A stretch of 59,626 nucleotides of DNA, filler included, from Jimgerdemannia flammicorona (GCA_003990765.1; 3 parts of 3 records of this genome joined end to end with filler, not necessarily neighbours in it), one strand, 5' to 3'; counted from the whole stretch's first letter, positions 3,840 through 46,000 are shown. Made by a program: numbers and translations. The notes: generated by a model from the sequence alone, not told the origin.

Positions 3840-4698
3840 CACTTTTTTGCACATTTAATAGCTCTAACTCAGACTTCATTCCAATTCGCCTTTTTACAAA
3901 GTTGGGGTGCGCATTCTCGCAATGCAGGAAGAACATAACGACCTTCAGTTGTTCCGCCGCCGAAATTAAAATAGAAATTCACACGCTCTTCCTCAACAGC
4001 ACCTTTTGCGAGGAAAGTGTCCGCGCCACGAGCCATTAAAGCGGGCGCTCGACGATGGCTAGGCCAAAGATGTTATTCTGGGGATTCCCAAGCCGCGTGA
4101 CAGGGACGGACCATCCCCCAAAGATGGCTCATTTTGCATAGCACATTGCAAATGAACAGTTGCCCACAAGCTGGGGGGGCCCCAAACAAGGAGATCGCCA
4201 GGACAATGACTTTGGTCGAGTTCGGCTAGGCCCTATTGGCGACGACCTGATGGTCATTATAGTGGTAGTGCAAAAGATTGTACCAAGGAGCACGTTTTTT
4301 CTGTTTTCCTGATTCGCGAACGGGAAATAACAATTGCCAACAGCAGCTCGGTGAATTATGTAATATTGATGTGATTGATATTCCCAATGCAAATGCGACC
4401 CTCAGTCTATTTGAAATAATTGACTACTTTGTACAAATGTGCTTAAGGTGATGGATAATTGCCATACACATGTATGACGTTATGTAGTAAAAAGAAGAAG
4501 AAAAAAGCAATTAAATACTCCATTGTGTGCATGATAATTATTATTGCGTAGCTCCGGGAGTAAAAGACGCATCAGCATTATCAATGTTCTCCAAATCGAT
4601 CTCTTGGTCTCCCATTTTGGTCCAGCTATGTGAAGGAATTCGGGCTCAGCAAGGGTCATACGGAACGAACACGTATATACGAGAAAAAGCACTGGCAC

Positions 4699-19912: not shown

Positions 19913-22153
19913 TAAGCCAGGGTTTGCCTAGGATCAGGTCATGGTCTCCTAGTGGTGCTACCTCGAAATCTAAATGTTCCCAGTACTTCTGGATCTTGAG
20001 GGGAAGTTTAGCGGCAATTGAGTCAATTGGTAAGGTGGTGCCATCTGCAGTGACAACTCCACCATTCTTGCCAGCTGGTTTGGTGAGAATCTTGAGCTTG
20101 TCGATGAGGTTCTTGTTGATGAAGTTCCCAACAGCTCCGCTGTCTATGAGAATGTCTAGTTCTTGTCCCTTGACTAGACCTTTGAAAATGAGCATTGAAT
20201 TGGCTCAGTTCTCAGCTATGCTTGCAACTTTGTCAGTACTGCCAAAGCCTTTCTGATCTTGCTTGGTTGAAGATAGCTTGGTGACTTCTTTGATGACTGA
20301 TAGGGTGGCTTGCTCCAGAATGAGCTGTGCAATTCTATCTCCTTCATTGATGGTATATGGCTGGTTCTTGTAGTTGACTAGCAGGACTTGCATTTCACCT
20401 CGGAAGTCAGGGTCTATGACTTCAGCACCAATATCCAATGAGTGCTTGAAGCTGAGGCCAGATCTTGGTGCAATTCTTGCATAATGTTCCTTGGGGATTT
20501 CGACTAAAAGGCCAGTTGGAATGAGCCTTCTTTCATGTGCCGGAATAGTGACTTGTTGTACTGCTTGAAGGTCCAAACCAATGGCTCCTTCTGACTGTGC
20601 TTGAGGGATCTGAGCCTTGGGGTTGACTCGCATGAAATTGAGTACAACTTCTTGTTCAACTGGTTGATCTTGAGTGTCTTTGGACAGGACCAGGATCCTC
20701 TTTGGTTCCGCAGTTTTCTTGGGACATTTGGTTGCAATGTGACCAGGCTGACGGCAAAAGAAGCAGGCTCCAGCCTTCTTAAGGCACTCCTTTTCCTCGG
20801 GTGTAAGCTTGCCTTTCTTGCTCTTGTCAATGGTGTCTAGGTCTATGGGGGCAGGTCCAACAGTTCTGACTTTGGGTTCCTCCCTTCTGTGGTTGTTGTT
20901 GTTGTTGTTGAAAGGCGGTCTCTTCTGTTCAAAGTGGTGACCATAGGTGATGATATCAAACCTATCAGCAATTTTCATTGCTGTGTCTAGGTCCTTGGGT
21001 TCTTCTAGTTCGACACGAACTCGGGTTTGACCTTTCAAACCTCGGATGTACTTGTCAACCTTCTCATCTTCAGTGACATGTGGTAATTCTAGCAGGATTG
21101 ACAGGAATTATGCATTGTATGCTTGCACAGACTTGAGTTGTTTGATGTTTGCCAGATGGTCTCGCGCAGCCTTGGTGCTGTTGACTGGTTTGAATTGGCC
21201 TTGAATGGCATCAGAGAATTTGCCCCAGGTCTTGATTCGGCCAGAGAATCTGGTATTCTGGACATGATTTCGCCACCAGATTGCAGCATTCCCTTGGAGG
21301 AGTGTGGTGGCAAATTGGACTAGTGTTGTTTCTTCCAAATTGGTCAATTCTCCATATTGCTCCAATTGGAAAAGCCAGGCATCGGTAGACAGTCCTCCTC
21401 TTTGACCATCAAAGGTGTCAGGCTTCTGCGGCTTGATAGTGACTGCTGTCGGATGTGTTGATGTCGGTGGAGATGCAGAGGTATGAGCAGAGGCCTTGCT
21501 TTCCTTTCTTTCTAAGCATTCTTGAAGTTGGGCAATCTGAGCAAATGCAGTTTGCAAAAGACTCTCGATGGACCCAGTTGACTGGGTGGGGATTGGCTGT
21601 TCCTCTTCTTCTTCTTGCTGATGGTAAGAGGCATTGCCTGGACCATAGACATTGTATGAAGGGTTCCACCCATTGTCCTCCATAGTGTTGTGACTGATAT
21701 CTTGAGAGGTGTCTTGATAAGGCTAGGTGTAACTTCACCGCTGCTACCAAGTGTAATGGTTCTAGTTTCTAAATGAGGAAGCGACTAATTCTGGTAGTCC
21801 TAAGTAGCTCGAAGAGATACTAAGGATTCAAGTGTTCTCGAAGGGTTTCTGGGAGAAAATATTCTGAGCTTTATTCATGAGAACAAAGGGGATATTTATA
21901 CAAGATCTGAAAGAAGGATCCGGAAGGATCTGAGAAATCAAAGGAAAATGCCAAGAGGAAAGTTCTCGGCAAAGATGACAAATGATGACAAATAAAGTTC
22001 TACAAGTTTCCAGGACATTCAGTGACTAACTAAATAAGTACTAGTTAATGCTCGGTGCCAAGAAAGGATTTCTAAGCATTTGGAAAGTACCAGAAGGTCA
22101 TAGAATATTGGAGAAAGACAAAGAAAAGGAATAAACTACGCTAAAATGTTACA
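19913..22153 (-). mobile_element. Ty3/gypsy LTR retrotransposon A, 5' part only (gag-CCHC-dUTPase-protease), rest lost in gap; same family as E
   Basis: 5' LTR 21752-22153 (TG..CA), gag from ATG 21683, CFFCRQPGHIATKC knuckle, dUTPase motifs (GLDL, PRSGLS, VIDPDFRGE, GDRIAQL, GFGST), protease LIDSGA. Confidence 0.92.
21738..21749 (-). promoter_or_regulatory. Primer-binding site of element A, probably initiator tRNA-Met
   Basis: TGGTAGCAGCGG two nt after the LTR; complementary to a ...GCTACCA 3' end typical of eukaryotic tRNAi-Met; decayed copy at 45647-45658 in E. Confidence 0.75.
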
Positions 22154-25100
22154 GCAATAATGACAATAAATTTGTAGATCTCATCTCCTTCAGTGATGAC
22201 AAGGATAAAGCCCCCATGATCTTGAACTTTCTGCTCTAAGTTCTTTGTTACACTGAATAATGCCAGCACCAGCATTCTGAGGTGACACAAATTTGTACCA
22301 GCACCGGTATTTTGAGGTAGTACTGAATAATACTAGCACTGGTATTCTGATATAACACTGAATTATACCAATATCCTGAACCTATACAACCATCAGTACA
22401 GACTCTAGAACTTAGTAGTTTTAGTTATTAGAATTTATATTTAGCTTTACATCTTAGCAACCATTGAATTATATTTTGTATAAATACTCCTCTTATTTTC
22501 TCTGAAATAAAGTCAGTTCTGGTTTCACTTACACATACTTTCTTACAAGCAATCTAAGAGATAACAAGATAGTTAAAGATAAGACGTTTGAGGACTATAA
22601 GACCTTGGAAAGGTACTCCAATAAGAACTTGCTTATAACAAACTTAAGTTAGTCTAAGAGATATATCTTGAAGAGAATCTGGCATATTTGAAGGACTCAG
22701 CGACCACTACATGATAACTTGGTGCCCATTGGCTGGTGATTTAAGATGAAAAATGAACAACCTCCACAATAACTACTCTGACTACAAGAGTCACCCCTGC
22801 AAGAATTCAAGATAAGATAGAAATGTGTCCCCCACATTCTATGGATATACTACTGAAGAGTCAATTCTGACCTTTATTGAAGACTTTGAACAATTCACCA
22901 CTGTACGAGCCCTTGATGTGGATACTCAATTGGCCCTTCTACCAGTCAGCCTCAGAAGATCTGCCAGAGACAAGTTCAATGCAGCCACCATTGCTGATGC
23001 TGGTGCAGCCAAACTTGTCAACATAAAGGCCTTCTTCAGAACAACATACTATACTGAAGCAAGCTCTCAAGGATCAACTCAATATTATCTGCCAGGGACT
23101 TAGTGAAGATCCTAACTCATTCTATACCTGAATCTGCCACCAGATTGTTCTGGCTGGCTATGATGACCACCTCAAGGAACAAATAGCAGATTCAACCTTC
23201 CTTAAAGGAGTTCACCCTGAAATTGCCTTAGCAATCCAGTCTACCCCAACTGTACTGACCCTTGATCAGAAAGTGGTCTTTGCACAGAGATATTAGACTG
23301 CCAGACACCCTGCCAAACACTCAATGGAGAAAATAACTAGCATCAAGATGGAGTCATCAAAGCCAACTAGTATTATACCTGCTACAGTTGTAAACAGACA
23401 ACCAACTCCACCTACCTCCAAGATAGCCAAAGCTGACCCAGTGGAGGAACTTGCCAAGCAGGTTGCCAAGATGACTGCACACCTTGGTGATGTTGTTAGA
23501 GAAGTCCAAAGTGCCAACAGGAGACCAGTGTAGAGATTTGCAGTTACTACAGAAGAATGCAATATTACATACTTCAGATGTAGAGAAGAAGGCCACTATG
23601 CAAAGAATTTCATAACTGAAACAAGATGCAAAGCCCAACCAAGCAATACTAGCAGAACCAGAGAACAAACCAATGCAGTAGTCATCAAGGAGATTGGTGA
23701 TACTGATGATGAAGAATACTATGAGGAGCTCAAATTCTACCCGCTACTGAAGGTACCAGAACCCAGGCCAAGCCCTATGACAAGAAGAGCAACAGCAAGC
23801 CAGTTGGAAGACCAAAGAAGACCCCAGCTGTCACTATTCAAAGTAAGACCCAACCCAAGGAGATTGATCAAGACATAGAGTTAGATGAAGCTGCCCACCA
23901 AATCATTGAAGGTACTACTCCAGTCTTAGGAGAAAGTGAAAGCAAGAAGGAACAGAAACTGTGCAAGACCAAGATCCACCAGTATGATATCTACAAGGAT
24001 CTCAAGGAACAGAAGGTCAATGCTACTTTTGGACAACTAGTCAAAGTTCCTGCCTTTAGACAGCAGTTGAGAGTAGGACTTGTAACTACCACCAAGAATC
24101 AAGAGTACAAGATTGTAGAAGCTCACAATGCACAGGAAGAATGTGAGAACTCAGGTGAAGAATCCAAAGACTAGTGCAAGACATCAGCCTATACTCCATG
24201 TCAGATTGAAGACTGTATCTTTGATGCTATCATTGATACTGGTACTGGAGAATGCCTCATGAGGAAGAAGGCAATTGACTGCCTAGGCTGGGATATTGAA
24301 GAGTCCACCAAGATAGTCTATGTCACAGCAGATAGTACACAAGCTACCCCCCTTGGCAAAATCCAAGAAGTCCCCATCAAGATAGGAGGAGCTACCATCC
24401 CAGTAGATGTGATTGTTATAAGCGCCACCAACTATGATATCCTCATTGACAACCAATGGCTTCACAAGGCCAAGGCCATCATTAACCTCAATGCCCAGAA
24501 GATGCAGATCAACTATAGAGGAAGAAAGGTACAAGTCTCTATAAATGTTCACAAAGGAGTCCTACCAGACATAGAAAAAGGAGATAAAGAGGACACAGAG
24601 GTCTTCATGTACTCAGTGAACAAGAACAAGAACAAGACACCCAAGCTCACAGATGAGTAGTGGTACAACAAGATCATCAATGGGTATGCCCCTCAAGGAA
24701 GATGCCCCCATGGTACTAGGATGTACTGCTCTGAACACCTGAATGACTGCTGGTTCTATATCAGTGAAGTCAGGAAAATCCACCAACAGAAATATGAGCA
24801 AGAAGCTGCTGAAGTAAAAAGGAAAGCTGAAGAAGATGACCAGCCCCCAGAGCTTCAGGCTGACAGTAACAATGAGGAGAAACAAGAATCAGACATCACC
24901 CTCAAGATCAAGAAGTTTCACCCTGAAGCTAAGATCTCAGAATACAAGACTGAAGGAGCTATAGGAATGGATCTTGCCAGCATTCAAGATGCTACCCTCG
25001 AACCACAGACCACCACCCTACTTGGTACTGGAATTAGAGTCAAGTTGTCAGAAAACCATGCCAGAATTATCAAGACCAGGAGCAGTCTGGCCAAAAGCAA

Positions 25101-28100
25101 AATCTCAGTTGAAGGAGGAGTAATTGACTCTGATTACACCAGCGAGATCTTCCTCATAGTCAGGAATCACAACCCTACCACCCCATTTGAAGTCAAGAAG
25201 CATGATAGGATTGGTCAGATGCTGATCCACGAAATCAAGAAGTCCAAGATCATAGAAGCCATTGAACTCATCAAGACCAAGAGAGGAGAACAAGGCTTTG
25301 GATCTACTGGAAGAGGAGCCTATGCTGCCACCAAGATTACTGAACTTGAGCACAAGAAAGATAAGGACCAGAATAAGCACACATACACTATTGGAGAAAA
25401 CTTTCCCCTGGAGGAATAACTTCTCAAGATCCTGTATCAGAATGAAGGAGTACTTGCTACAGACTTCTGAGATATCCACAATCAAGAACCCAAGTACTAC
25501 CATGAAGTTGATACTAGTGATACCAAGTCCATCTACCAGAAAGCCAGACCCATACCACCTGCCTATAGAGAATGGCTGTGAGCAGAACTCAAGGAAATGG
25601 AAGAAGCTGGAATTATCAAGCAAGCTATCAGCCCCTGGGCCTCACCCATTGTCCTTGCCCTGAAGAAAGGAAGCAAGTCTGGAGAGTTTGTACCAAGACT
25701 CTGTATTGACTATAGGAAGCTCAATGCCATCACCAAGAAGGATAGGCAGCCCTTGCTGAATATTCAAGAAATCCTTACCACCCTTGGGAGTGAAGCCAAA
25801 TACTACACTACCTTGGATCTGTTCTCAGGCTTCCATCAGATTGGTCTCACTCAAGATACCAGCAAGAAACCAGCCTTCATTATACCTGATGCCACCTATA
25901 TCTACCTGTGAATGCTATTTGGAATGTACAATGCCCCAGCAAGTTTCCAGCAAATGATGAACAGAGTCTTTAGCAATGAGATTGAAAAATGGCTCTTTGT
26001 CTATATTGATGATGTGATCATCTTTAGCAACACTGCATGGGAACATATCAATTATATATAGCTAGTCCTCAAGAAGCTCAAAGAGCATGGCCTCTACATC
26101 AAGCCCAAGAAATGCAAGTTTGTAGTCCAGGAAATCACCTACCTAGGACACCTCATCAACCAGACCAGAATTCACACAGACTCCATAAAGATTGAGGCTG
26201 TTGCAACCTACCCAAGACCCAGAACAACCACAGAAGTCCATGCCTTCCTTGGACTGGCCAGCTACTACAGAAGATTCATCAAAGGATACTCCAACATTGC
26301 AGCACCCATCTATGAGCTACTGAAGAAGGAAACCAAATTTAAATGGACTAAGGAGCACCAAGAAACCTTCAATGAACTCAAGACCAGGTTGACCCAAGCA
26401 CCTATCCTCAGAAGACCAGACTGGAATCTAGAATTCATCTTGCAGACAGATGCAAGTGCTATAGGACTTGAAGCAGTCCTAGCTCAGAAGAAAGATGGAC
26501 ATAAATATGTCATCTCCTATGCAAGCCAAGGTACCTGTAGAGTAGAACAGAACTACAAGTCATGTAAGCTCAAATGCTTAGCAGTAGTTTGGGCAGTAGA
26601 TAAGTTCCACTACTACCTAGCTGAGAAATACTTTACTATTCAAACAGACCATTCTGCCCTTGCCTGGCTATTCCACACTCTGAACCCCAAAGGAATATAT
26701 GCCAGATAGATCTACAGACTACAAGAGTATGACTATACTGTCAAGCACCACTCAGAAAGAACTAATACCAATACTGATGCACTCTCAAGGACACCCTGAA
26801 ACACCCCCAACAAGACCATTCAACATGAATAAGGAGCTATACTATGGATTAATCAGCTATCTTGGGCAGTAGAAGATGCCCAACTACCTTGAACCCTGGA
26901 CAATCACCATCATCAACTGGACTTGGAAATAGTTTGAACTAGACAACACTACACTCAGAAAAGGAGGAAAGCTAGTAATACCTAAACACAAGAAGTATTA
27001 AGTAATGAATAAAGTACATGAGCAAGGATACCTAGGAGGAACCAACACATATAATAAGGCAAGAAGAACCATGTAGTGGCCCAAGATAGAAGAAGACCTG
27101 TGCCAATTTGTCAAAGGGTGTAACAAGTGCCAAAAACAGAAACAAGATCAATAAGACCAGGAACCTGGGTCATCAAGAATTGAGCCTATCCCCTTCCACC
27201 ACATTGCAATAGATATCATCAGACCACTATCAGTAACACTATCAGGAAACTACTATATTATAGTTATTGTAGACCTCTTCACCAAATAGATAGAGACAGG
27301 AGTATTACAAGAAGCCAATGCCTTCTCTATAGCTGACTTCCTGTATTAAGAAATCATCTGCTGCTACAAGACACCAAAGCAAATCACAACAGACTATGGT
27401 ACAGAATTTGTCAATAGATTCTACAAGATAATGTATCAGAAATACAAGATCCAGTACATCAAGACCACTGTGTACCACTCTCAAGGAAATGGACAGACAT
27501 AGAGAACCAACAAGACCTTCAAGAATATCCTAGCAAAGATCTCAGAGACATATGAGAATTGGGATAACTATCTCCCAACTGCCCTCTCTGTCCTATGAGA
27601 TATATGGTCACAGAGTACACACTTTACCCCAAGGGAGCTACTCTTCAGAAAAGAAGATTCTGATGGAATCTCAGCCACAAATCTAGACCTAACTTGGAGA
27701 TGGGATGATGCAGAAATCCAGAGACTATACCAAATCAGGAAGAAGACTGAAGATTACATCATCAAGTCACAAGTACTGATAAGGAAGAATGCGGAAAAGA
27801 ATCACAAGGCCCTAGAACCCATCTGAATTAGAGAAAAGGTTCTACTGTATCAAAATATGGTAGAAGCCTCATAGTCATGAAAACTGAAGCCCAAATGGGA
27901 AGGACCCTTCTATGTGCAAGATATCAAGGGAACTACCTTCTGGCTTAGAAAAATCTCAGGGACTATACTGCCTACTATGGTACATAGGAACAGACTCAAG
28001 AAGTACTATAAACCTATACAAGAGAAGTATAATGTGATGACTGCCCATGAGGTTCTAGTCTGCAAATCATAACAGCATATCCTATGGCCAGCAGGCTATC

Positions 28101-28385
28101 TGTCTGGACCATTCTCTAAGGGATACGGCACTGGCAACTACTCATCTGTAAGACTTTTGAAGTCAGAGGAGTTTGAACCATCAACTGATTGATCAAGATC
28201 AGAATTAGGCCCTTGCTCTATATGAAGGGAGCAACCCTTCACTATCATGCCAAAATACAAAGAGAAGATACCAGCCTATAAATACCACTTTTTGACCTCT
28301 TGCCAGAGGTTATGGGATTAGCAAATTTTTCAAGACTGGACCAATGAATAAGGATGCTCAAGAAGATCCTTATTCAGGAGGAAGA

Positions 28386-29822
28386 TGTAATAGTGACCTC
28401 AGAAATGATGACATCAGCAATGGAGACAGTCTTTCCTTGTAAGCCACCAGATTGGAGCACAAGAAGATTATACAGTATATGAGATAAGCAATAATGACTA
28501 ACTGTGAGTCATTGTGACCACAGTACAAGCATCCTGAGGAATATAAAAGAAGGATCAAGGAACTACAGTAACAGTAACCAACAAGACCCACTAATCCCAA
28601 AATAGCTTAAAGACTTACTATAAACAAAATGCCTGCTGCCCACTAAACCTCAAGGTCAAGGAATCACCAAGATATCTCAGTCAAGGAGAGAATGTTCTAA
28701 GACATCAGAAGAGCTATAAGGACCTGCTCAAGAAGAACTCCTAGTATCAACCTGGGTACTGGTGACTCTTATCATTATATCCTCTACTATCATAAAATGG
28801 AAACAAGAATCGCTATTGCCACCAAATACCTCCAAATGTGGCAGGAGTATGAAATAGGAAACCTCCTCTGTCAGGAGTTTCCATAGGCCAGCACTCAAGA
28901 GCTATAAGATGCCACTCCTATGGATATATATGAAATGAGAACAGCTAAGAAGATCCATCAGATCTTCAGACATGCACCATGGTCAATCCCCAACTTGGAG
29001 TATGTTAGAGTCTCAGATTTCAGAGACCTATCATCCCACCATATCAATATACTAGAAGCCAGAGTGGCTACAGAAGCCCAGTCCACCATCACCCTCAATA
29101 GTGATGAAGTAGAAGACTTCTGGCATCCTATCCTTCAGGACAACCCAGACCAATTCCTGCAAGGATTGATCTCAGTATTCTAAGGCTCAAGTATCCAGAT
29201 TAGACCTCTCCAAGACCCCATATTTATTCCCTATTTTGTGGAAGAGAATCTCATAGACTGGAGAGCTTCAGATCTCCTTGTTCCCATCACCGCCAAATGT
29301 AATGATGTCATAGCAATGATATCGTCCCATGTAATATCAAAGCACATGAAACGTATAATATACAAGATGCATGACCTATGTAACAATGACAATGAATTTG
29401 CTGATCTCATCTCCTTCAGTGACAACAAGGATGAAGCCCTCATGATTTTGAACTTTCTACTCTAAGTTCTTTATTACACTGAATAATGCCAGCACTGGTA
29501 TTCTGAGGTGACGTGAATTTGTACCAGCACTGGCATTTCGAGGTAGCACTAAATAATACCAGCACCAGTATTCTGATGTAATACTGAATTATACCAGCAT
29601 CTTGAACCTATACAACCATCAGTTCTGGTTTCACTTATATACACTTCCTTGCAAGCAATCTAAGAGATAACAAGACAGTTAAAGATAAGAAGTTTGAGAA
29701 CTATAAGATCTTAGGAAGGCACTCCAATAAGAACTTGCTTATAACAAACTTGAGTTAGTCTAAGAGATACACCTTGAAGAGAATCTGGTATATTTAAAGG
29801 ACTCAGTAACCACTATGTGACA
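28386..29822 (+). repeat. 3' LTR of element B (about 1.44 kb, contains a decayed ORF)
   Basis: Begins TGTAATAG right after purine tract AGGAGGAAGA and ends CTATGTGACA; both termini and the PPT resemble those of family C LTRs. Confidence 0.7.
28629..29465 (+). pseudogene. Decayed accessory ORF (about 279 codons) of element B, unknown function
   Basis: Single frame from ATG 28629 to TAA 29465 joining ORFs 28920-29183 and 29238-29465; internal stops are all TAA/TAG, compatible with C>T decay. Confidence 0.65.
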
Positions 29823-31348
29823 ATGTCAATAAAAATAAAAGAGAAGTTATTTATGAAAAAGGAGAATAAGTATTACTCAGTATCTAGTATCTGACTCTGA
29901 ATAATATAGACTCTAAAAAGAAGCTTAGACTCTACTATATTGGACCATTCAAGATCCTTAAAAAATATAAACTTGTTCATATAAGTTAGACCTCTCAACA
30001 ATACTAAAAGAATTTACCCAGTATTTTATATATCTCAACTTCAGTCATATATACTAAATATCTTTGAAGAAAGAACTGTGTTACCTCCAGATCTAGTAAT
30101 TATTTATCAGTAATCAGAATATAAAATAGACTACACTTAGATCACAAGAATTACTGATTTGGATAAGCTACCAAGCCCACTCAGTACTATCTTATAAAAT
30201 GGAAAGAATATTCTAACTATAATACTATCTGAGAAATAGAAGATAATCTTTTACCAAGTAGTAACTTAATACAGATATCTGATATAATGAAAATTCTGAT
30301 AGAATTTCCAAAAGACAGTTATATCTCTAAATATCCCTAATGAAGAGAGGTATAAATATTCTAAAATAATCTCATATAAATAACTTACTCTCAATATAAA
30401 TACCTAGTAATAATACTAAGAACAAACTAAGAATAAGATTGCTACTACTATTCTTATAGCTATCAATACTAATAGAATTCTACTAAACTACTTTTTGTCA
30501 ATATATAAATCTCTAAAGATCTAGATCTAAATAAAGCTCAACAATATCTTAGAAGGATCTAATATTTCCAGACTTTTTACTACTAATAAAAATTAAAGGA
30601 GTACTATAAGATAGAATATCTTATTTATCAATAAGCTACTCTCAGTGCTACCAAATAATGAGTCCACCTTTTTATTAATAACCATATCTATATTATTATC
30701 AAAAGACTCTATATTCTTTTCTGCACCTAACTATAAGTCCTTCACTACCTCTGTAGAGTATCTTCTAAGAATATTGTTAATTTAAATGATGAATAATAAA
30801 GTGATATTGTTTTTCAAGTAGTCTAGTATACTGCTCTTCAGTTTGAAAAGTATCTGGAGTTTAGTGCTAAGTCTAATAAATAGACTCAGATAAAGAAGAG
30901 AAGAATGTAATAAATTATTACATATATATCTACAAAGCTGCTGGAATTTCTAATAGAAAATTCTATGGAAATTTCTATAGAATTTTTTATAAAAATTTCA
31001 ACTAACAATCATAGTTATCTAAAATAGTATAAATATATAGATATATCTAGTATACTATATTTAGTTATAGTCTCAAATATGTATAAATACTCTCTATACT
31101 GATTTTGTTATAATCTCAGCTCTACTTTCTCTGAATTCAAGAATAAAGTAACATTCTTATTACAAAACTCTCAGATCTGACTTATTAACAATTCTAAGTC
31201 TGATCAACTTGGAATACAAGTATGGCACTTCTATCTATATAAAAATCTGAAAGCAATATCTGAACTCTACTATAACAGATAATTGGAACTCAGTACTTTC
31301 TCACAAAGACTTAGAACTTAGGACCAATAGTTAGTTGAATTATTCACA
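29823..31348 (+). mobile_element. Very decayed chromovirus 3' end F (integrase GPF module, chromodomain, PPT, LTR), host of element B
   Basis: YIGPFKI at about 29936, YLIKWKEYSNYNT at about 30188, purine tract then TGTAAT at about 30906. Confidence 0.65.
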
Positions 31349-31382: not shown

Positions 31383-32789
31383 TGTAACATAGTAGATGTA
31401 TAACTATAGAAGTATGTTGGATTTCAGTATCTTAGAAACTTGATCTTCTTTGACTCTGCAGAGTCCTCAGGATGTAAGAGTGGGTAAGTTTAAAGTATAT
31501 CTACCTATAGACTTACTAGTTCTTTTGCTTTTTCTTTACTTTGAACTATTTTGATCTGAGGTTTATTTACTCTAGATACTGGGGATTTATATAAGTTTGC
31601 TAGCTATAGGGTGGCTAAATTATAACTATATTTCCTGTGAGTTACTTTTCATAAGTATTAAACTTTTAACATTTGCTAAAACTTTGACAATTGCCAAAAG
31701 TTTAATATCTGCAAAATCTTCAACATCTGTAAAGAGTTTAACATTTGTAAAAACTTTAACAGTTGTGAAATAACAATAACTGCTATTTGTAAGATTATAC
31801 TATATTAGAAATTGAGTTCAGATACTATGGTAAAATGTCTAATTTCCTTGATTTATATTTCTAATTCAGATCAACTATTACAACTTCCTCCTAAATAAGT
31901 AATTTATCTCTGAAATATCCCATTCAAACTCCCAAACTTCTATGATTTGTATCTTTTTATATTGTGTGATTTGTATTATTACATACTTCCAGTAGTATCT
32001 TTTAATATATCTAAAGTCTCCTGAGACTACTCTATGAAGATGGGCTAGAGCTGGCTCATCATTCTTGAACATCTTGTTGACTTGTTTGGTAGTTGTAATC
32101 TGAGTATGAGAGAGCTAGCACTCTCTAATCTAGTCTTCTTTTCCCATGTCTAGTCATGAGTTTAGTAGCTATCTCAATTTGAAGTATTCTTTAAACTTAA
32201 TTTGGTTCTAGTAGACTTTGAAGTGTGAGATTTATGACAAGTGTGTCTGAACTATACTCTATATACTGTCAAAGGATTCTTCTATAGTTGGTAGCTCAGT
32301 AGTATACCATAGTCTTTCTATAGCTCACTATGCAGCACTGATGATCTTGAGGGCTGTAGTAGTACTTTATTGATTAGCCATAATACTTTTTGAGTTAGTT
32401 TTGATGAATAGTAGTAGAGGTGATTGTGTCTGAGAGTTTTTGTAGCCAAAAGGTGGTTTTTTTTATATCTTATATCAGGTAAGGTTCTTCCTACTTAGGT
32501 TCCAGTTTTTATGACCATAAAGCTTCTACTATGTTCTGATATATTAAGACTTTGTCTCCTATCTTGATAATCTCTAGGGGCTTGAAAATCTTTTCTGTAT
32601 TATTTCATTATAGTATCTGTACCTTGGTTATATAATTCTTGGCCTTGTTCCTGATTTGGTATAGTCTTTATATCTCTGTATCTATATATATATTTCCATA
32701 TAGTATCTCTATTAGACAATAGGGTTCCTTGAGAACTTTCTTCTCTGAACAGCATCTCTTGAGGAATGAAATGAATACTTTATAACTAG
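31383..32789 (-). mobile_element. 3' fragment of Ty3/gypsy element C2 (LTR 31383-31882, PPT, accessory ORF, integrase C-terminus)
   Basis: Colinear diverged copy of 32790-34150. Confidence 0.85.
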
Positions 32790-35700
32790 TATAATATAGT
32801 GGATGCTTAACCTTGGAAGTATGTCAGATTTCTATATCTTGAAAACTTAATCTTCTTTGACTCTGCAGAGTCTTTAGATGCAGAGGGGTGAGTTTGAAGT
32901 ATATCTGCCTACAGACTTACTAGTTTCTTTGCTTTCTCTTTGCTTTAAACTATTTCAATCTGAGGTTTATTCACTCTAAGATACTGGGTTATTTATACAA
33001 GTTTGCTAGCTATAAGGTGGCTAAGTAATGAGTCATTTTCTGCAAGTATTAGATCTTTTAACATCTGCTAGGATTTCACTGATTACCAATTTTCTAACAT
33101 CTCCTGAATATTTGCAAATGTTAAAGTTTCTGCACTTTGCAGAATATGACTGCTATTTGTGTGGCTATACTATATCAGAAATTGGATTCAGATACTGCAA
33201 TCAAAATGTCTAATTCTCCTGATTCATATTACTAATTCAGATCAACTATCACAACTTCCTCCTGAATAGGTAATTCATCTCTGAAATATCCTATTCACTC
33301 AAACTCCCAGACTTTTACAATTTGTATCTCCTTGTACTATGCAATTTGTGCTATTACATTCTGCCAGTATTATCTCCTAATATATCCAAATTCTCCTTGA
33401 GTTATCTCTCAGAAATGAGCTAGAGCTGGCTCATCATCCTTGAATAACTTATGCACTCTCTTGGCAATTGTGATCTGAGTGTAAGAGAGCTGACATTCTC
33501 TGATCCAGTCTTCTTTTCCCATTTTTGACTTTGAATTCAGTAGTTGTCCTAGCCTGAAGTATTCCTGAAACTTGGTTCAGTTCTGGTAGGCCTTGAAGTG
33601 TGAAATTTATAACAAGTGGATCTGGACTATACTCTGGATACTATCAAAGGATTCCTCTATTGTGGGTGACTCAGCAGAACACCACTGTCTTTCTATGGCT
33701 TATTGGGCAGCACTTGTGATCTTGAGGGCAGCTGCATTACTTTATTGACTGCTCATAATACTTCTTGAGTCAGTTTTGGTAAATAGTAGTGGGGATGATT
33801 GTGCCTGAGAGTTTTTGTAGCTAAAAGGTGGTTTCTTTTATATCTTGTACAAGGTAAGGTCCTTCCCACTTAGGCTTCAGTTTTCATGACCATGAAGCTT
33901 CTATCATATTCCGATATACCAGGACTTTGTCTCCTATCTTGATAATCTTCAGAGGCTTGTGAATTTTTTTCACATTATTCCATTGTAGTATCTGCGCCTT
34001 GTTTATGTAATCTTCAGCCTTCTTCCTGATTTGGTGTAGTTTTCATATCTCCATATCCATGTGTTTCCATACAGCATCTCTATTGGATGATAGGGTTTCT
34101 TTTCTCCAAATAGCATTTCTTGAGGGGTAAAGTGGGTGCTTTGTGATCAGATATCTTGAAGAGCAGATAATGCTATTGGCAGATAGTGATCCCAGTTTTC
34201 ATAGTTATTACAGATCTTAGTGATAACATTCTTGAGAGTCTTGTTAGTCCTTTTCACCTGTCTATTTCCTTGAGGGTGATAGGCTGTGGTCTGAATATGC
34301 TAAATCTTGTACTTCTTGTAAAGAACCTCAAAGAACTGATTCATGAATTCTGTTCCTCTGTCTGTGGTTACTTACATTGGGGTCTTGAATTGGCAGATGA
34401 TTTCTTTGTAGAAGAAATCAGCAATTAACTGTGCATTGGCTTCTTTGAGGGGTCCTGCCTCTATCCATTTTATGAAGAGGTCTACAATGACAATGATGTA
34501 TCAGTTGCCAGGGTAGAGGGCCAATTACATCTATTGCAATGTAGGTAAATGGTGCTGGTTCTATATGTGATCATCTTAGGACTTAATTTCATTGATCTTG
34601 TTTCTGCTTCTGGCATTTGTCACATATCTTGACAAATTGTCTAATATCTTCCCCCATTCCTGGCCACTACATTTTTCTTCTTGCTTTATCATATGTATTG
34701 GTTCCTCCTAGATGGCCAAGTTTATGTACTGATTTCATTGCTTACTCCTTCTTGTGTTCTGGTATAACTAGTAGTTTTCCTTTCTTCAGTGTTTCTCCAT
34801 TAGTCTCAAATTGTTTTTATGTTCTATTGATAATCATTTGAGTCCATTCTTTTAGATATTGGGGCATCCTTTGCTGTCTCAGGTATGTGATGATTCTATA
34901 GTAGAGTTCTTTATTCATAATTGATTTGCTGGTTGGGAGTCCTTCAGAGTATCTGTGAGAGAGTATCTACATTGGCATTGGTTCTTTCTGGGCAGTGCAC
35001 AATGGTTATATCATATGCTTGTATGTAACTTCATGATCCATCTGGCATAGATTCCTTTGGGTTGCCCAGTGATCAGTAGTCAAGTGAGGGCTGAGTAGTC
35101 TATCTGAATGGTGAAGTGTCTTCTAGCAAGATAGTAGTGAAACTTTTCTACTACCCAGATGACTGCGAGGCACTCCAACTTGTATAATTTATATTTCTTT
35201 TCAGCTCCTCAGGTTCTATGGCTGAGGTATGTAATGACATACTCTACTTTGTCTTTCTTTTGAGCTAGGACTGCTCCTAGTCCTTGTGCACTTGTATCTG
35301 TCTGAAGGATGAATTCTTGGGTCCAGTCTGGTCTTCTAAGGATGGGTGCTTGGGTCAGTCTGACCTTGAGCTCATCGAATGCTTGTTGCTGCCTGCCCAT
35401 CTATTGGAATTTGATGTCCTTTTTGTTTAGTTCATAGATTGGGCTTATGATGTTGGAAAATCCTCTAATAAATCTATGATAATAGGAGGTGAGTCCCATG
35501 AAGGCTTGGGCTTCAGTAATGGTAATAGGTCTTGGGTATACTGCTACTGCTTATATCTTAAGAGGGTTCATATATGTTCCATCTTGATTGATGACATGAC
35601 CAAGATAGGAGATCTCAATTTCTGCAAACTTGCATTTCTTGGGCTTGATGTAAAGACCATGTTCTCTTAGCTTCTCTATTATCTGCTGGATATGCTGCAG

Positions 35701-37167
35701 ATATTCTTCAGCTGTCTTACTATAGATGATTACATTATCTATGTAAACTATCATCTATCTTTCTATATTATAGTGGAAGATTTTGTTCATCATTTGCTGG
35801 AAGCTTGCTGGTACATTGCACATTCCAAATGGCATTTACAGATAGATGTAGGTTCCATCTAGAGTTATGAAGGATGACCTTTTACTTGCTGCTTCAGTGA
35901 GACCAATTTGATAGAATCCTGAGTATAAGTCCAAGGTACTGTAATACTGTACTTCATCTCCTAGAGTTACAAGAATGTCACTGATAAGGGGCAGTGGTTG
36001 GCAATCTTTCTTAGTAATCAGATTGAGTTTTCTGTAATCAGTGCAGAGTCTTGGGGTGAATTCTCCTAGCTTGCTTCCTTTTTTCAGAGCTAATACAACT
36101 GGTGGAGCCTAAGGGCTGCTGGCTTCTTTGATACTGGCTTCTTCCATCTGCTTGATTTCTTCCCTAAGCCATTCATAGTAGACTGGTGGAATGGATCTTG
36201 CCTTCTGATAAATTGATTTGGTGTCTCCTGTGTCTACATCATGATAGTAGTATGGGGTCTTTCCTTTGATGTCTCTGAAATCTATGGCAAGGACATCCTC
36301 GAATTCATAAAGTATCTTCTTGAGTTTCTTCTTGAGTGGAAACTCATTTCTGATGATATAGCTATGCTTGTTTGTAGTTTCCTCCTTCTTGTGATCCAGT
36401 TTGGTGATCTTGGTGCTAGTGAATACTTCTCTTTCTATGGATCCAAATCCTTTTCTTCCTCTTTCTGTTTCCTCCAACTTCTTGACTTCCATGATCCTTG
36501 GCTGAAGAACTGGGAGGATCAACATCTGTGCCAGTTGGTCCTTCTTCTTGATTGGAAATAGAATTGTAGAATTGTGATTTCTAGCAATAAGTAGTATTTC
36601 TCCAATGTAATTGGAATTAATAACTCCTCCTTCAATTGTGATTTCACTCCTAGCCAGGCTGCTTCTTGTCTTGAGGATTCTGATATAGTCTTTTGAAATG
36701 GTCATTTTCAGACCAGTTACTAGTAGGGTGGTTGTCTGGGGTTCCAGTACAGTTTCCTCTACTGTGGCAATATCCATTCCAGCTGCATTTTCTGACTTGT
36801 ATTCTGATAAGACTGCATCAGAATGAATCTTCTGAATCTTGATCTTGATTTCCCCTTCTTCATCACTATCTTCAAGGAGGGCTGGTGGTTCATAATCTTC
36901 TTTCTCTATTCTCTTCTCTTCTCTTGCTTGTTTCCCAAGGGCCTTCTCTCTTCTTTGGTGGTAGATTTCCTTAATTTTACTGGTGCACTGATAATACTTA
37001 TTGATATGCTCCATACAGTACATTCAGATCCCATGGGGGCAGACTTCTTGTAGTGTATATCCTTTTGCGATCTTTTTGCACTATTCTTCTTTACTCATCT
37101 ATTCAACTTTCTTCTTCTTTTTCTGAGTGGTCACCATGTAGGCTTCCTCTTATTTGCTCTCTTGTTC
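32790..37167 (-). mobile_element. Ty3/gypsy element C1 (dUTPase-RT-RH / IN, accessory ORF, 3' LTR 32790-33253), relative of B, 5' part missing
   Basis: dUTPase (AGMDI, TRSSLA, GGVINSNYIGE, RGRKGFGS), VYIDNV, LQTDTS, GHLG..CDKCQ; PPT 33254-33263; colinear with B. Confidence 0.9.
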
Positions 37168-38453: not shown

Positions 38454-39723
38454 CGGAGAAACAAACATGGGCAACACAGGCAACACAGGCAAGATGGGCA
38501 AGATGGGCAAGATGGGCAAGATGGCAAGATGGCAAGATGGGTAACATGGGCAAGACAGGCAGATGGCAAGACAGGCGACATGGGCAAAATGGGCAATATG
38601 GGCAATACGGGCAACATGAGCAACAAGGGCAACACGGGCAATACGGGCAACATGGGCAGGTAAGATAGGCAAGATGGGCAAGATAGGCAAGATGGCAAGA
38701 TGACAAGACAGGCGACATGGGCAAGATGGGCAAGACAGGCAAGACAGGCAAGATGGGCAAGACAGGCAAGATGGGCAAGATGGGCAAGATGACAAGATGG
38801 CAAGATGGGTGACATGGGCAAGATGGGCAGATGGCAAGACAGGAGACATGGGCAAGATGGGCAAAACAGGCAAAACAGGCAAAACAGGCAAAACAGGCAA
38901 AACAGGCAATACCAGCAATACTGGCAACACAGGCAGGCAATATGGGCAATACAGGCGGACAACACAGACAACATGGGCAACACAGGCAGGTAACACGGGC
39001 AATACAGGCAACACAGGCAACACGGGCAATACGGGTGGGTAAGATGGACAAGAAGGGCAAGACAGCAAGATGGGCAACATGGGCAAGATGGGCAGATGGC
39101 AAGACAGGTAATATGGGCAAGATGGACAAAACAGGCAAAACAGACAAAACAGGCAACATGGGCAACATGGGCAACATGGACAACACAGGCAACATAGGCA
39201 ACATGGGCAGGCAAGATGGGCAAGATGGGCAAGATAGGTAAGACAGGTAACACGGACAATATGGGCAAGATGGGCAAGACAGGCAATACAGGTAACATGG
39301 GCGGGCAACACAGGCAATACGGGCAACATGGGCAACATGGGCAACATGGACAACACAAGCAACACAGGTGGGTAAGACAGGCAAGATGGGCAAGATGGCA
39401 AGATGGCAACACAGGCAATATGGGCAGGCAAGACAGGCTAGATGGGTAAGACAGGAGGCACTAATAGGGGTAGGTCAGGTGCACTAGATGCCAAGTACTT
39501 GAGGTGGTTGGGGCTCACAACCCATACCCACTGGGTGGGGCAGGCCAGGTAGGAGGATCTAGTTACTCAGGTAGTGAGGTCACAACTTATACCCTAAAGG
39601 TATAAGGCTGGAAGTGGGTTGAGATTGGGGTAGAATGGGACTACTGATGTTGTATGAGGATATGTGGCATGTTATAGATAGTTAATAAATGAGTAACAAG
39701 GCTGAAAAAAAAAAAAAAAAAAA
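38454..39723 (+). mobile_element. Poly(A)-tailed non-coding retroposon P1 (VNTR + G-rich 3' end); 5' boundary approximate
   Basis: AATAAATGAGTA then poly(A) running into the gap; 3' motifs shared with P2. Confidence 0.55.
38466..39455 (+). repeat. 9-bp minisatellite (GGCAAGATG/GGCAAGACA/GGCAACATG/GGCAATACG variants) with higher-order blocks
   Basis: Directly visible GGCAA-core tandem units over about 1 kb. Confidence 0.95.
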
Positions 39724-40011: not shown

Positions 40012-43000
40012 TGTAACAGTTCTAGTTTCTTTAAGAGGAAGTGGCTAAATCTAAAAGTTCTAGTTGATCTAAAGTAACTCAAAAAGATACTTAAAGGTTC
40101 AAGTGTTCTTGAAGGATTTCTGAGAGAAAAATATTCTGAGCTTTATTCAGGCAGAGAATAAGGATATTTATATATAATCTGAAAGAAAGATCTGGAAGGA
40201 TCTTGGAAAGAAAGAAAAATGCCAAGAAATAGATTCTCAGTAAAGCTGACTAATACAATTCTATAATGTTCTGAAAGATTCCATGACTAGCTAAGACAAG
40301 ATACTTGGTGCCAAGGAAAGACAAGAATGTTCTAGTGGTGTCTGGGTGTAGAGAGAAGATTTCTAAGCAAGTTAAAGGTGATGGAACATAGTAGAATATT
40401 TAAGAAATAATAAGAAAAGACTAACTAAAAGAAACAAAAATGTACTAAGACTAATATGACTGTGAATTTATTACATCTCTCTCTCCTTAAGAACCAATAT
40501 CCTCATTGAGTTCTTAAGTAACATAAGACTAGATATACTTAACTAAAATTTCTCAAACTTATATCAGTATATTGATAGAGATTAGCCATTCTTGTATAGA
40601 GCAGAGGGCCTATTATAACAGACTAACTAACTGAGAGGGGTTCAAACCCAGCTAGTAGCTTTATTTTAGTAGACTTCTTGTTCATTAAATGTTCTACTGG
40701 TTCTGGGTTCCCAAAGTAAACTTTTAATGCATAAGATACTGGTCTTTGCCATAGATCATTGATAATCCAAGAAAGTCACTATAGGGATTGGGCAATGTAT
40801 TTTGCCTCAAAGTCTTAAACTAGATCTTAAGAGTTCTTGAGGTTGACCAGTAGTTCTCAGGTAGTATCATATTTGGGGTAATCCATCCACTTGACTAGAT
40901 ATTCAGGATGGTGATAATAGATTCATTTGTCAAGAATTTTCTCAGCTTCATACTCAATGTGGTCTTCAATAATCATGAAAGCAAAAGGCTTAGAAATTTG
41001 ACCAGGGTAGAGTGGTGACTGGTTTTAGGTCTTGAGGTGTGATATATGAAAGACTGGGTATACTCTCATGGTTTCAGGTAGCTTGAGGTGGTAGAAGGAT
41101 ACAGAGACCTGTTCAGTGATCTCAAAAGATCCAATATACTTAGGTTGGAACTTGTTCAAAGGGTGATTGATTTGGGATTATATCTTGAGATTCTCAGTAG
41201 ACAGTAGAACTTGATCTTCAACAGTGTAAGTGATATTATGGCATTTCTTATCAGCATACTTGGCTTGATGCTGTTGAGCTTTCTGAAGATTTGCAGTAGT
41301 AATCTTAAGTGGTTTGTCCATTTTATCTATAAGGTTCTTGGTGGTTAGAACTTATATTTGACTAGTTTTCTTAAAAGGGAATAGACTTGCAGAGGTTTTG
41401 GGATCTTGACCATAGAGTAATCAGAAAGGGGAAAGACTAGTAGATAATTGAATAGCATTGTTGTATATAAACTCTACATAAGTCAGATAGTGGTCTCAAT
41501 TATCTTACTCATAGAAAACATAGTTTCTGAGTATTTGTTCTAGAGTTCTATTCATGTGCTCAGTTTGTTTATCAGTTTATGAGTGAAAGGCAGTAGACAT
41601 AGCCAATTGGGTTCCCAGAGTCTTGAAGAGAGTTTGCCAGAAGTGACTAGTGAACTTGGGGTCACAATTGCTAAAAATTACTCATAGTAGGCCATAGTGA
41701 CAGAAGATGAACTTGAAGAAGATTCTTATAATTTCAGATACAGTAGCATTGGTAGTAGTTGGTTCAGCAACCATAGTCTTGGTCAGGTGGTCAATGAATA
41801 TGATGATAGTATTAGTACCAGATTGAGTTTATAGTATTTGAGTTATAAAGTCCATAGTGATTTGCTCAAACTTCTTGGTAGGAATTGGCAGTAGTTATAG
41901 TAAACTGACAGGTGCTTGGTTGGTAGACTTATTGCACTGATATAAATTATAGCTGGTAACATAGTTCTTGATTTCCTTGACTATGTTTGGCCAATGGTAG
42001 TGATATTGGATGTTTTTAATAGTCTTCTCAATTCCTAGATGACTGGTAAGAGGGGAGTCATAGTGTTCATGCAAAACCTTATAGCATAGGTTTATATTTT
42101 CAGATAGATAGACTTGATTTTGATGATAGATCAGGTTGTTCTTAACAGTATATATATCTTTGAGCTTGTTTGAGAAAACTTTAGTGACAACTGTGTCTTC
42201 TTTGTAAACTTGTCTGATTTGGTCTAGGAATTCTAATACCAAGGTGACTTGTATGATTGTAGTGAGGTCTGGGCATCTTGATAAGACATCTGGTACTACA
42301 AGTGTCTTTCCAGGCTTGTAGATGATCATTGGATTGAAAGTTTGAAGCTTGAGGCTCCACTTGGCTTATAGATGTGACAGAGTAGATTGGGTATTGATAT
42401 ACTTGAGAGATTGATGATCAGTAATGACATCAAACTCAATATCTTCTAGATAGCATTACCAGTGATCTAGTGTATATATTATTACCAGTAGTTTCTTCTC
42501 ATAAGTAGCTAGCTTTTGTTTAGCTGGGGCCAGCTTATGGGACTTGAAGCAATAGGGTGATGTTCTTTGTCATCATCTTATGATAGAACTGCTCTAATGG
42601 TAAAATTTAACCCATTAGTAGTGACTGTGAATTTTAGGCCTTAATCTGCATTATGTAGGACTGGAGTATAGGTCAGGTAGTTCTTGAGTTCTTGAAAGGC
42701 TTATTGACAGAAGAGGTCTCAGATGTAGAATATATAGTGGTCTGAGTGCAGGGCCTTCCTCATGAGATTGGTCAGTGGTTCAGCAATACCAGAGAAGTTT
42801 CTGACAAAGCAGCAGTAATAGCCAGCTAGACCAAGAAAGGATTGGAGTTCTGTAAGGTTTGACAGAATGGACCATTCTTCAATTACTTCTATCTTGTGTG
42901 GGTCTACTTAAATTCCTTATATAGAGACAATGTGACCAAGATATTTGACTTATTTCTTGAAGAATATATACTTCTTGAGCTTGGTATAGAGCTTGTGTTT

Positions 43001-46000
43001 TCACAGGATCTCCAGGACTATTCAAATGTGTTTAAGGTGATCTTCTTTAGCTGCACTAAAGATCAAGATGTTATCAAGATATACCAACAGAAAAATAAAT
43101 AGTTGGTCCTTAAATATCTTATTCATCAGAGTCTGAAATGTAGTGAGTATATTGGTGAGACCAAATGCTAAGACCAGAAATTCATAGAGTCTAAAGGAGA
43201 TCATGAATGCAGTTTTGAGAATATCTTCTAGCTTGATTCAGATCTGGTGGTATCCTGACATGAGGTCTAACTTGGTGAGATACTTGACATTCTTGAGAGT
43301 ATTAAAGATTTGATCAATCAAGAGTAGCAGATAGCAGTTCTTGACAGTGATTTTGTTGAGTACATAATAGTCTATGCACATTTGTAGAGTACTATCCTTC
43401 TTTTTGATAAATAAGACTGGTGAGCCATAAGGAGATTTGCTTGGCTGGATGGCTCCTCATGTAAGTAATTCTTCTAGTTCCTTCTTGACTGCTTCAATTT
43501 CAAGTAGCAACATGCAGTATATGTGTTTCTTGAATGGTACAGCTCCTGGGGTCAGTTTGATTTCATGATCAACTTCTTGTATAAGTGGTAGACCAGGTAG
43601 CTTATCTGGAAAGACATCCTTGAATTCTTCTAGCAGTAACTTGATGCTTTTATTAACTGATAGTCTCTTGTCTTGTTTCTTGAGGCAGATCATTATAATA
43701 AAGGCATATATTGCCTTCTTGAGTACTTTCTTATACTATATAGCTGACAGTATTGCAATCTAGGTCTTGCTCATAGTCTTGTCTGTCTTGATCATAATAT
43801 TGGCTCCATCTTGAAGTAAGGTGACTTTATTCTTGCACTAATCAATGTCTGGATTGTGTTTTATAAACCAGAGTTTCCCTAAGATCAGGTCATAATCTTC
43901 TAGTGATACAATCTCAAAGTCTACTCATTCCCAATATTTCTAGATCTTGATGGGCAGTTTGGCAGCAATTGACTTAATGGGGTGTAGAGTACCATCTGCA
44001 GTGACTATACTATTGTTCTTGGGTACAGGCTTGGTAAGGATCTTGAGGCTTTCAATGAGATTCTGATTGATAAAGTTCCCTGCAGCTCTGCTATCTATGA
44101 GTACTTGAACTTCTTTTCCTTTGACTAGGCCTTTAAAAATGAGTATAGCTTGAGCTCAATTTTCACTAAGACTTGCTGCTTAATTGGTGCTGCTAAAACC
44201 CTTTTGATCTCATTTGGTTTTAGGGAGTTCTTGGACTTCTGTAATCTTGAGTTGACTGGCTTTTTCTAAGATCATTTGTGTGACTCAGTCTCCTTCTTTA
44301 ACTGTATAGTCTTGATCCTTCTGATTGATAAGCAAGACTTAAACTTATTCTCAAAAGTTTGAGTCAATAATACTAGCATCTATATCTAAATAATATTTGA
44401 CACTGAGTCCTGATCATGGTGCAATTCTAGCATAATATTCTTCAGAACATTGAACTGCAATTCCAGTAGGCACCAGAGTACAGCTCTTGGCTGAAATAGT
44501 GACTTGTTTGACTGAGTGTAGGTCAAGACCAATGACTTTTTCTGTTTGATATTGAGGAACCTGGGTCTTCAGATGAAGTTTCTTGACCTTGAGCTCAAGT
44601 TGACTGGTGGTGGGGTTGACAGATGTGTTCTTGGACAACACAGTGACTGGTCTTAAGGGTTTGCTAGTCTTCTTAGGACATTTGGTTGCAATGTATTCTG
44701 TTTGGTAACAGAAAAAATAGACTCCTAATTTCTTTAGATGGTCTTTTTGTTCAGGGGTGAGCTTGGTATTCTTTTTGTTCATAGTGTCTAAGTCCATTGA
44801 TGCCAGGCCAACTATCTTTGATTGGTTCTTGTGGCAGTTCTTAAAATGGGGTTTCTTGTGGTGTTCTAGTTTGAAGTAGTTGCCAAAGATGATGATAACA
44901 AATCTATCAACAATTCTTATAGCTTCATCAAGGTTCTTAGACTCTTCTAGCTCAACCTTGACTCATGTGTTTCCCTTCAGACCTCAGATATAGTAGTCTA
45001 TCTTTTCATCCTCAGATATTGCTGGTAGCTCAAGTAGAATTGATAGAAATTATGCATTATAGCTTTGTATAGACTTGAGTTACTTGATATTCACTAGCTT
45101 GTCTCTGACTAGCTTGGTGTATTGACAGGCTTAAACTACTTATAAAGGGCTCTTTTGAAAGCTTCCCAATCTCTGATTTGTGCATATGAGTGTATAGATA
45201 TAACTATAATATGATTTCACTACCAGATAGCTGTATTTCCTTGGAGAAGTATGGCGATAAATTAGACTTATATGTCATTTTCCATTTTTGTGAGCTCGAA
45301 GTATTGGTCCAACTGGAAGATCCATACATCTATAGATAGTCCTTCTTGATGGCTGTCAAAGATATCTAACTTAAGTGGCTTAAAACTGACTAATACTATA
45401 ATAGGATGTGATATATCTGCAGTTTGTGTTTTCTGCTATTTTAGTTGTGCTTGAAGTTCTTGGATTTGGTAGGCTATAGTATTGATCATATTCTCTATAC
45501 TAAGTTGCTGTCCTCCTACTTCTTCTATAGCAGAGGGGTCTGGTTGGTAGACTGACTCTTTATGGCTCATCTTGGGTTCATGTGACTAGTTGTGACTGGT
45601 TTCTAAATTTATATGAGGTTTCTTAATAAGGCAAGATATAATGGCATCACTGCTATCAAGTGTAATAGTTCTAGTTTCTTTAAGAGAAAGTGGCTAAATC
45701 TGAAAGTTCTAATTAGCTTAAAGTAACTCAAAGAGATACTTAAAGGTTCAAGTATTCTTGAAAGAGGACTTCTTTCTCTCGAACCATACTGGTCAAAAGG
45801 TCTAGGTGGAAATTAGATCCCTATGGTACAGGGGAAGGGGGGCCATTAGTGTCCCGAGATTGGGTGTGCCAGAAGTGACAAGAGAAGAGGAGTCCAATAG
45901 TGTTAAGTTGCCCCAATCTCAAGGCTACAGTTTTTAAGAATTCAAGGGTTTTGTCATTTCATAGGCCAGACAGTATGATGTAGGCTCTGGGAGCCACTGG

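Follow-up and report, generated by a model that had tools for sequence, protein, structure and literature searches.

Retroelements are, to our knowledge, the textbook cases of translational recoding, always at the boundary of gag and pol and always with a fusion protein as the product. In long terminal repeat (LTR) elements of the Ty3/gypsy type, the protease (PR), reverse transcriptase (RT), RNase H (RH), and integrase (IN) are usually, although not by strict definition, encoded in a single pol open reading frame (ORF). We analyzed a stretch of 59,626 nucleotides (nt) from Jimgerdemannia flammicorona (GCA_003990765.1; three parts joined end to end with filler), hereafter the window, which carries two decayed Ty3/gypsy elements, B and C1. 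The usual single pol ORF is absent from this lineage, and the integrase is separate in 26 related rows of the phylogenetic tree described below. We know of no described case of an integrase encoded as an overlapping cistron of its own.

As in the +1 frameshifting of Ty1 and Ty3, the -1 frameshifting of retroviruses, and the UCC-UGA site of antizyme, the ORFs overlap here out of frame, and a translational device (predicted in our case) sets the protein ratio. Those systems, however, produce fusion proteins and have a fixed shift site and direction, with the retroelements shifting at the gag/pol boundary, whereas here gag and pol share one ORF, the direction of the offset varies, the start codon is conserved, and the apparent shifty stop looks like an artefact of decay. 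Pol functions are likewise distributed over more than one ORF in Skipper of Dictyostelium, which has its protease in a separate ORF, and in the legume element Ogre, which has an intron between protease and RT; unlike in our elements, the split lies elsewhere (protease, not integrase) or depends on another mechanism (splicing). The polycistronic caulimoviruses use yet another one, reinitiation with the transactivator TAV (available text of PMC10275272). A dUTPase domain between PR and RT, found here by Pfam, is also known from the fungal Ty3/gypsy element PosPlaTy3-5 of Postia placenta and from Phanerochaete and Tuber elements, but the survey of fungal chromoviruses that reports them has, in its available text, either a fused Gag-Pol ORF or a pair of ORFs, gag and pol, with no mention of a separate integrase ORF (PMC2864245).

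The available text of PMC10275272 gives stop/start pairs that follow long ORFs, for example UAAUG and AUGA, as a hallmark of coupled termination-reinitiation. In calicivirus VP1/VP2, influenza B virus M1/BM2 (UAAUG), Helminthosporium victoriae virus 190S (AUGA), and the hypovirus CHV1 (UAAUG), the AUG of the next ORF overlaps the stop of a long ORF or lies a few nt from it, out of frame, and the last two are cases from fungal hosts (PMC10275272 and PMC2699510, both in part). The same arrangement is seen in our elements; unlike in these viruses, it lies within the pol region of an LTR retrotransposon, splits off the integrase, gave no sign of excess RNA structure at the junction, and is known here from sequence alone. 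In SART1, a non-LTR retrotransposon of Bombyx, ORF1 and ORF2 are coupled through UAAUG, and a downstream RNA structure is required (available text of PMC10275272, citing Kojima et al. 2005). SART1 resembles our elements as a retrotransposon with a second cistron made (predicted here) by stop-start coupling on the full-length RNA, but its ORF2 comprises the whole RT/endonuclease, whereas here the integrase alone is split off and no structure was seen. A literature search yielded no description of an LTR element whose integrase forms a separate or reinitiated cistron, with Repbase Reports and much of the older transposable element literature outside its reach and a prior description possible; the "separate ORFs" of PMC4427930 are those of a long interspersed nuclear element (LINE).

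Integrase is encoded in an ORF of its own

Frame 1 of element B gave Pfam matches to RVP_2/Asp_protease, dUTPase (E 4e-25), RVT_1 (E 2.6e-30), and RT_RNaseH_2 (E 7.3e-31). This upstream frame runs through ...NTDALSRTP into a TGA and closes a second time at a TAA (Table 1), which, judged from the related locus L012, would be the true end of the upstream ORF. The integrase follows in the +1 frame from an ATG (MNKELYYGLISY...), with a match to Integrase_H2C2 (E 3.5e-12) and one to rve (E 3e-07) that at 31.1 bits is slightly below the cut-off of 32.6. The Pfam matches, the start codon, and the translations thus bear out the first-pass annotation of this DNA, which had placed the integrase of B in a separate +1 frame. 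Its observation that C1 has the same layout with identical spacing was also reproduced: the alignment of B and C1 is gap-free from DALSR to past the ATG, the distance from TGA to ATG is 28 nt in both, and the +1 frame is open over this interval in both translations. The upstream frame of C1 ends with ...DTLSQIL before the TGA, and its integrase starts with MNKELYYRIITY...

Metagenome contigs were scanned with an alignment of these integrases, and 80 of the 329 confirmed loci were kept; domains were placed by tblastn with the RT-RNase H region of B and the integrase protein P0001. The junction could be read in 25 loci that include integrase residue 1 as well as the RNase H tail. In 18 of these loci, the distance between the upstream stop and the integrase ATG, which is out of frame with it, is -8 to +5 nt (types in Table 1), and B and C1 have the same proximity with ATGAATAA. 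The frame offset of the tight junctions is -1 in 12 and +1 in 6; with the near-duplicates L005/L006 and L018/L020 taken into account, 16 of them are distinct. Neither CCCTGA nor the offset, which the first-pass annotation had suggested comparing across copies, is fixed. The homologous ATG is kept in 24 of the 25 loci, and the integrase frame is closed 6–147 nt upstream of it (6–69 nt in most loci); therefore, translation must begin at this ATG. In L023 and L027, the closure lies only 6 nt before the ATG, leaving no space for a shift site.

Several of these relatives are intact. L012, an undecayed soil copy of B's family with 85% identity to B over 2109 nt, has its upstream frame ending at the TAA of ATGAATAA, overlapping the integrase ATG, and an open integrase ORF of 415 amino acids (aa). 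Since L012 has the same layout, the same ATGAATAA, and an intact integrase ORF, the offset shared by B and C1 is beyond chance. ORF1 of L008 is open over 1493 aa and contains zf-CCHC, protease, dUTPase, RVT_1, and RNase H domains; ORF1 of L005, at least 1577 aa long, has the same domains. The integrase ORFs of the relatives, 409–543 aa in length, lie downstream of ORF1. In L008 and L005, Gag and PR-RT-RH therefore form one ORF, and only the integrase stands as a separate cistron.

For a quick maximum-likelihood tree, 32 integrase rows were hand-picked from those with a usable junction: 25 loci, B, L078, and five library polyproteins trimmed to the integrase. The 26 rows with a split integrase formed one clade with a Shimodaira-Hasegawa-like approximate likelihood ratio test (SH-aLRT) support of 97, and the six fused rows fell outside it. 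Sister rows carry different junction types (ATGA in L005 versus TGATG in L007; offset -1 in L018 versus +1 in L004 and L011); therefore, stop and start stay close to each other while frame and sequence change.

Proteins from other sources agree with a stand-alone integrase. When the integrase frame of B (stops written as X) was used as the query of an all-length HMMER search against 1.84 billion representatives, all 12 matches with at least 39% identity were no longer than 448 aa, and all matches above 900 aa had at most 32% identity. Five full-length matches (P0001, P0003, P0005, P0008, and P0060) have residue 1 opposite the methionine of the query, and all start with MN or MD. Two integrase relatives carry the source names of Mucorales, Lichtheimia ornata and Mucor plumbeus. 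The source annotations of these retrotransposon integrases read "transposase InsO family protein" or "IS30 family transposase", which is likely a systematic mislabel in metagenome annotation.

The TGA upstream of the integrase start codon

The first-pass annotation had seen in CYC-TGA a conserved, antizyme-like +1 shifty stop. The undecayed copy L012 reads ...GAC GCA CTC TCA AGG ACA CCC CGA AAC ... CAA C-ATG-AA-TAA, with CGA (Arg) opposite the TGA of B. Because L012 has CGA here and 59 of its 61 CpGs are gone in B, the supposed shifty stop of B is, by this comparison, a deaminated CGA with no apparent recoding role, and the proposal of a conserved site falls. The TGA of C1 is probably a decayed CGA as well, judged from how it aligns with B and L012; among the 80 metagenome loci, none was a closer intact relative of C1, the best being L012 with 70% identity. 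L012 is the sole witness of CGA, and position 26797 of B is not among the 40 listed differences (185 more are unlisted) from contigs of four sequencing runs, three from soil metagenomes and one with a coded organism label. There is no common heptamer at the listed junctions of the relatives. The marks of a frameshift site, namely a conserved shifty codon with a slow codon or stop, a fixed direction, an open downstream frame, and a dispensable AUG, are thus absent. CpG-decayed copies can imitate recoding signals through the change of CGA to TGA.

Expression of the integrase

We consider it fairly probable (about 0.6) that the integrase is a separate cistron made by coupled termination-reinitiation. 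Three features together have the look of this mechanism: the AUG is conserved, the frame is closed shortly before it, and stop and start lie a few nt apart in either frame. ORF1 would be translated as one long Gag-PR-dUTPase-RT-RNase H polyprotein, and ORF2 would encode the integrase alone, starting at a conserved AUG (Met-Asn/Asp...) in overlap with or adjacent to the stop of ORF1, in B's family as AUGAAUAA with an offset of +1. Ribosomes terminating at the end of ORF1 would remain on the full-length RNA and reinitiate at the adjoining AUG, so that the integrase would be made in smaller amounts than Gag-PR-RT-RH. Reinitiation would then replace the usual gag-pol frameshift as a dosage device, and for the integrase only. 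Of the two routes considered in the first-pass annotation, stop-restart at ATGAATAA fits the comparative data, while programmed +1 frameshifting does not.

Several observations weigh against coupled reinitiation. The junction is not tight in 7 of the 25 loci: the gaps between stop and ATG are 47–159 nt in L029, L030, and L040 and 730 nt in L053, RNase H and integrase of L027 are separated by additional ORFs, L058 counts as tight (-8) solely through an ATG located 45 nt upstream of the aligned one, and L065 has ATA instead of ATG. The loci are metagenome contigs, and kinship inflates the counts. The protein P0028 reads "...ALSRTNTRNPRRYTP-MNSETY" in one frame, and the RH-IN frame may be continuous in some members. 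For reinitiation to follow an ORF of about 1500 codons, a tethering signal similar to the ribosome-binding site upstream of termination (TURBS) is normally required. Such an upstream RNA element would hold the 40S subunit, by 18S complementarity or as a pseudoknot. The junction RNA showed no excess stability, with mean minimum free energy z-scores of -0.01, -0.44, and -0.15 in three 100-nt windows (20 loci, 100 dinucleotide shuffles each), in a test that is blind to a short rRNA-complementary motif. The mechanism itself is deduced from the anatomy of the elements.

Translation of the integrase from an RNA of its own is unlikely, although it merits attention. Such an RNA would be subgenomic, from an internal promoter, or spliced, like env of retroviruses and errantiviruses, and the overlap would reflect compaction. 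The split ORF and the conserved ATG fit this equally well, coupling is less obvious in five loci with stop-ATG gaps of 42–159 nt (L029, L030, L031, L039, and L040), and no RNA structure was detected at the junction. An RNA of its own, however, needs no nearby stop, and yet 18 of the 25 junctions lie within 8 nt while frame and sequence vary. No intron was recognized between DALSR and the ATG: B has no GT there, and C1 has only an 18-nt GT...AG, which is too short. No joints were seen in contigs matched to B, which are DNA contigs and silent on RNA. Internal ribosome entry on the full-length RNA, independent of the termination of ORF1, is permitted by the layout, a separate ORF whose conserved AUG lies far from the 5' end, but we regard it as improbable: no conserved or stable structure was found upstream, the linker ahead of the ATG is variable in both length and sequence, and the proximity of stop and start would be left unexplained.

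A programmed +1 frameshift at CCC-UGA-A in B and CUC-UGA-A in C1, producing an RT-RH-integrase fusion, appears very improbable. It draws on the ability of the peptidyl-tRNA at CCC-UGA to re-pair on CCU and on the open +1 frame between TGA and ATG, but CUC of C1 re-pairs poorly on UCU by established codon-anticodon rules, L012 has CGA at this position and B has lost nearly all CpGs of L012, the offset is -1 in two-thirds of the tight junctions, the ATG is kept, and in L023 and L027 the integrase frame is closed just before it. That the split is merely an inactivating indel shared by dead copies, with no function, is scarcely credible at all. Stops riddle both pseudogenes, B and C1, and further indels are present in C1, but the same split occurs across the whole clade and in relatives with open ORFs; because intact relatives carry a separate integrase ORF, the split is not an inactivating indel. 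Copies such as L012, L003, L008, and others show the discontinuity and not the continuous RH-IN frame that the first-pass annotation had associated with an indel. In addition, no indel is listed at 26774–26841 in the contigs of the four runs compared with B.

We would give even odds to the broader proposition that a large clade of Ty3/gypsy elements of Mucoromycota-type fungi, not known to have been described as such, with neither a gag-pol frameshift nor a single pol, doses the integrase alone by termination-reinitiation after about 1500 codons. If true, these would be the first LTR retroelements known with stop-start coupling and a new expression strategy among them, in which gag is fused to PR-RT-RH and the integrase is split off. 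This suggests that the lineage limits the dose of integrase rather than that of RT. It would also provide a cellular, non-viral system for long-ORF reinitiation in fungi, and the natural variants (ATGA, UAAUG, AUGnnUAA, and gaps of 40–160 nt) would be useful for dissecting this process in eukaryotes. Annotation pipelines will label such elements as frameshifted or dead and their integrases as "IS30/InsO transposases".

Organization of elements B and C1 and of their relatives

Table 1. Features of elements B and C1 in the window and junction types of related metagenome loci
Feature	Position	Strand	Remarks
B 5' LTR	about 22161..22716 (self-BLAST 22156-22717)	+	pairs with the 3' LTR at 88-89%; ends approximate
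B 3' LTR	about 29387..29822 (self-BLAST 29382-29823)	+	ends approximate
B upstream ORF remnant, decayed (PR-dUTPase-RT-RNase H)	24175..26832, frame 1	+	Pfam and translation
B in-frame TGA after DALSRTP, apparently a decayed Arg codon	26797..26799	+	alignment to L012
B junction ATGAATAA	26825..26832	+	integrase ATG 26825-26827 overlaps upstream stop TAA 26830-26832; +1 offset
B integrase cistron, decayed (HHCC zinc domain and DDE core)	26825..28050, frame 2	+	Pfam; internal stops
C1 dUTPase-RT-RNase H remnant, decayed	34947..37000	-	translation, BLAST to B
C1 junction	34911..34946	-	TGA 34946-34944, ATG 34918-34916, TAA 34913-34911; spacing as in B
C1 integrase remnant, decayed	33760..34918	-	BLAST, translation; several frame changes
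ATGA junction			L001, L002, L005, L006, L023
ATGnnTAA/TAG junction			L003, L008, L012; L012 has ATGAATAA as B, L003 and L008 have ATGAATAG
ATGn5TGA junction			L004, L011
ATGn4TAG junction			L018, L020
TGATG/TAATG junction			L007, L014, L015, L045
+4 gap			L046
+5 gap			L019

Element B spans about 7.7 kb on the + strand, and its LTRs flank an internal region as in Ty3/gypsy elements. The domain order PR-RT-RNase H-IN, with the integrase after RNase H, was found by Pfam in B, L008, and L005. The Gag zinc knuckle is represented by zf-CCHC in ORF1 of L008 and L005 and by a decayed CCHC knuckle (CREEGHYAKNF, about 23570–23617) in B, where a sequence resembling a primer-binding site, TGGTGCCC, lies a few nt downstream of the 5' LTR. 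The alignment of the LTRs showed that 120 nt of the 5' LTR (22393–22512) are absent from the 3' LTR and did not establish a target-site duplication; nor was a polypurine tract established. The RNase H tail of B has a TAG (26707–26709) at the position of a tryptophan in its relatives, and the integrase frame contains several internal stops. C1 (33755–36860, - strand) is 69% identical to B (24884–28009) over 3.1 kb by BLAST and carries a private 4-nt insertion near 35015 in its RNase H tail. B and C1 are dead, C-to-T-decayed pseudogenes of a Ty3/gypsy lineage with two cistrons.

A further ORF of 114–230 aa without a Pfam match follows the integrase in several relatives (L005:5960-6649, L008:7189-7701, L040:7103-7495, L053:7326-8015, and L039:4155-4682). 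In L040, the ATG of this ORF and the integrase stop overlap as ATGA, and in L005, L018, L020, and L039 the ORF starts 26–53 nt ahead of the integrase stop. About 1.3 kb of B (28050–29386) at the corresponding place has no assignment.

Two relatives contain modules of nucleotide metabolism beyond dUTPase. Between RNase H and integrase, L027 carries an ORF (4318–5625) with NUDIX (3.1e-09) and deoxynucleoside kinase (1.9e-09) domains; the integrase ATG of this locus, at 6001, overlaps by 8 nt the stop of the preceding ORF, which ends at 6011. In L050, the RNase H tail has a thymidylate-kinase-like extension (2354–3013; 3.9e-05, under the cut-off).

Decay and composition of the repeat cluster

The window consists of a repeat cluster at about 20–50 kb between gene-bearing flanks. 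The ratio of observed to expected CpG in 2-kb bins is 0.0–0.29 across the cluster, 0.9–1.17 in most bins of the flanks, and 0.61–0.67 at 50–54 kb. This depletion, the heavy decay of both copies, and the 4-nt insertion and frame changes of C1 had not been mentioned in the first-pass annotation. One exon in a flank (2270–3475, - strand) matches at 100% identity a protein that by its source name is the AMP-dependent synthetase from Jimgerdemannia flammicorona, of the Endogonales (Mucoromycota).

From L012 to B, 174 of 288 substitutions are C>T or G>A toward B. The per-site frequency of C>T is 0.55 for CpG, 0.22 for CpA, 0.12 for CpC, and 0.05 for CpT; the directional decay of B relative to the undecayed copy is thus mainly at CpG, with CpA and CpC also above CpT. 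The pattern looks like methylation-linked deamination in a mucoromycete, possibly with a second context resembling repeat-induced point mutation (RIP).

On the - strand (31385–34125), C1 has behind it a partial duplicate without the junction: a C-type integrase's 3' part and the sequence that follows it occur in tandem at 31385–32764 and 32792–34125, 77% alike. Arrays of diverged tandem repeats with many offset self-matches (65–87%) lie at 38464–39455 and 48658–50035, and also at 52130–52300. A diverged direct repeat pair, 19913–21444 and 43864–45391, shows 66% identity over 1.5 kb, and an LTR-like pair, 40101–40476 and 46942–47318, is 89% alike; together, these two pairs point to at least one further element in the cluster.

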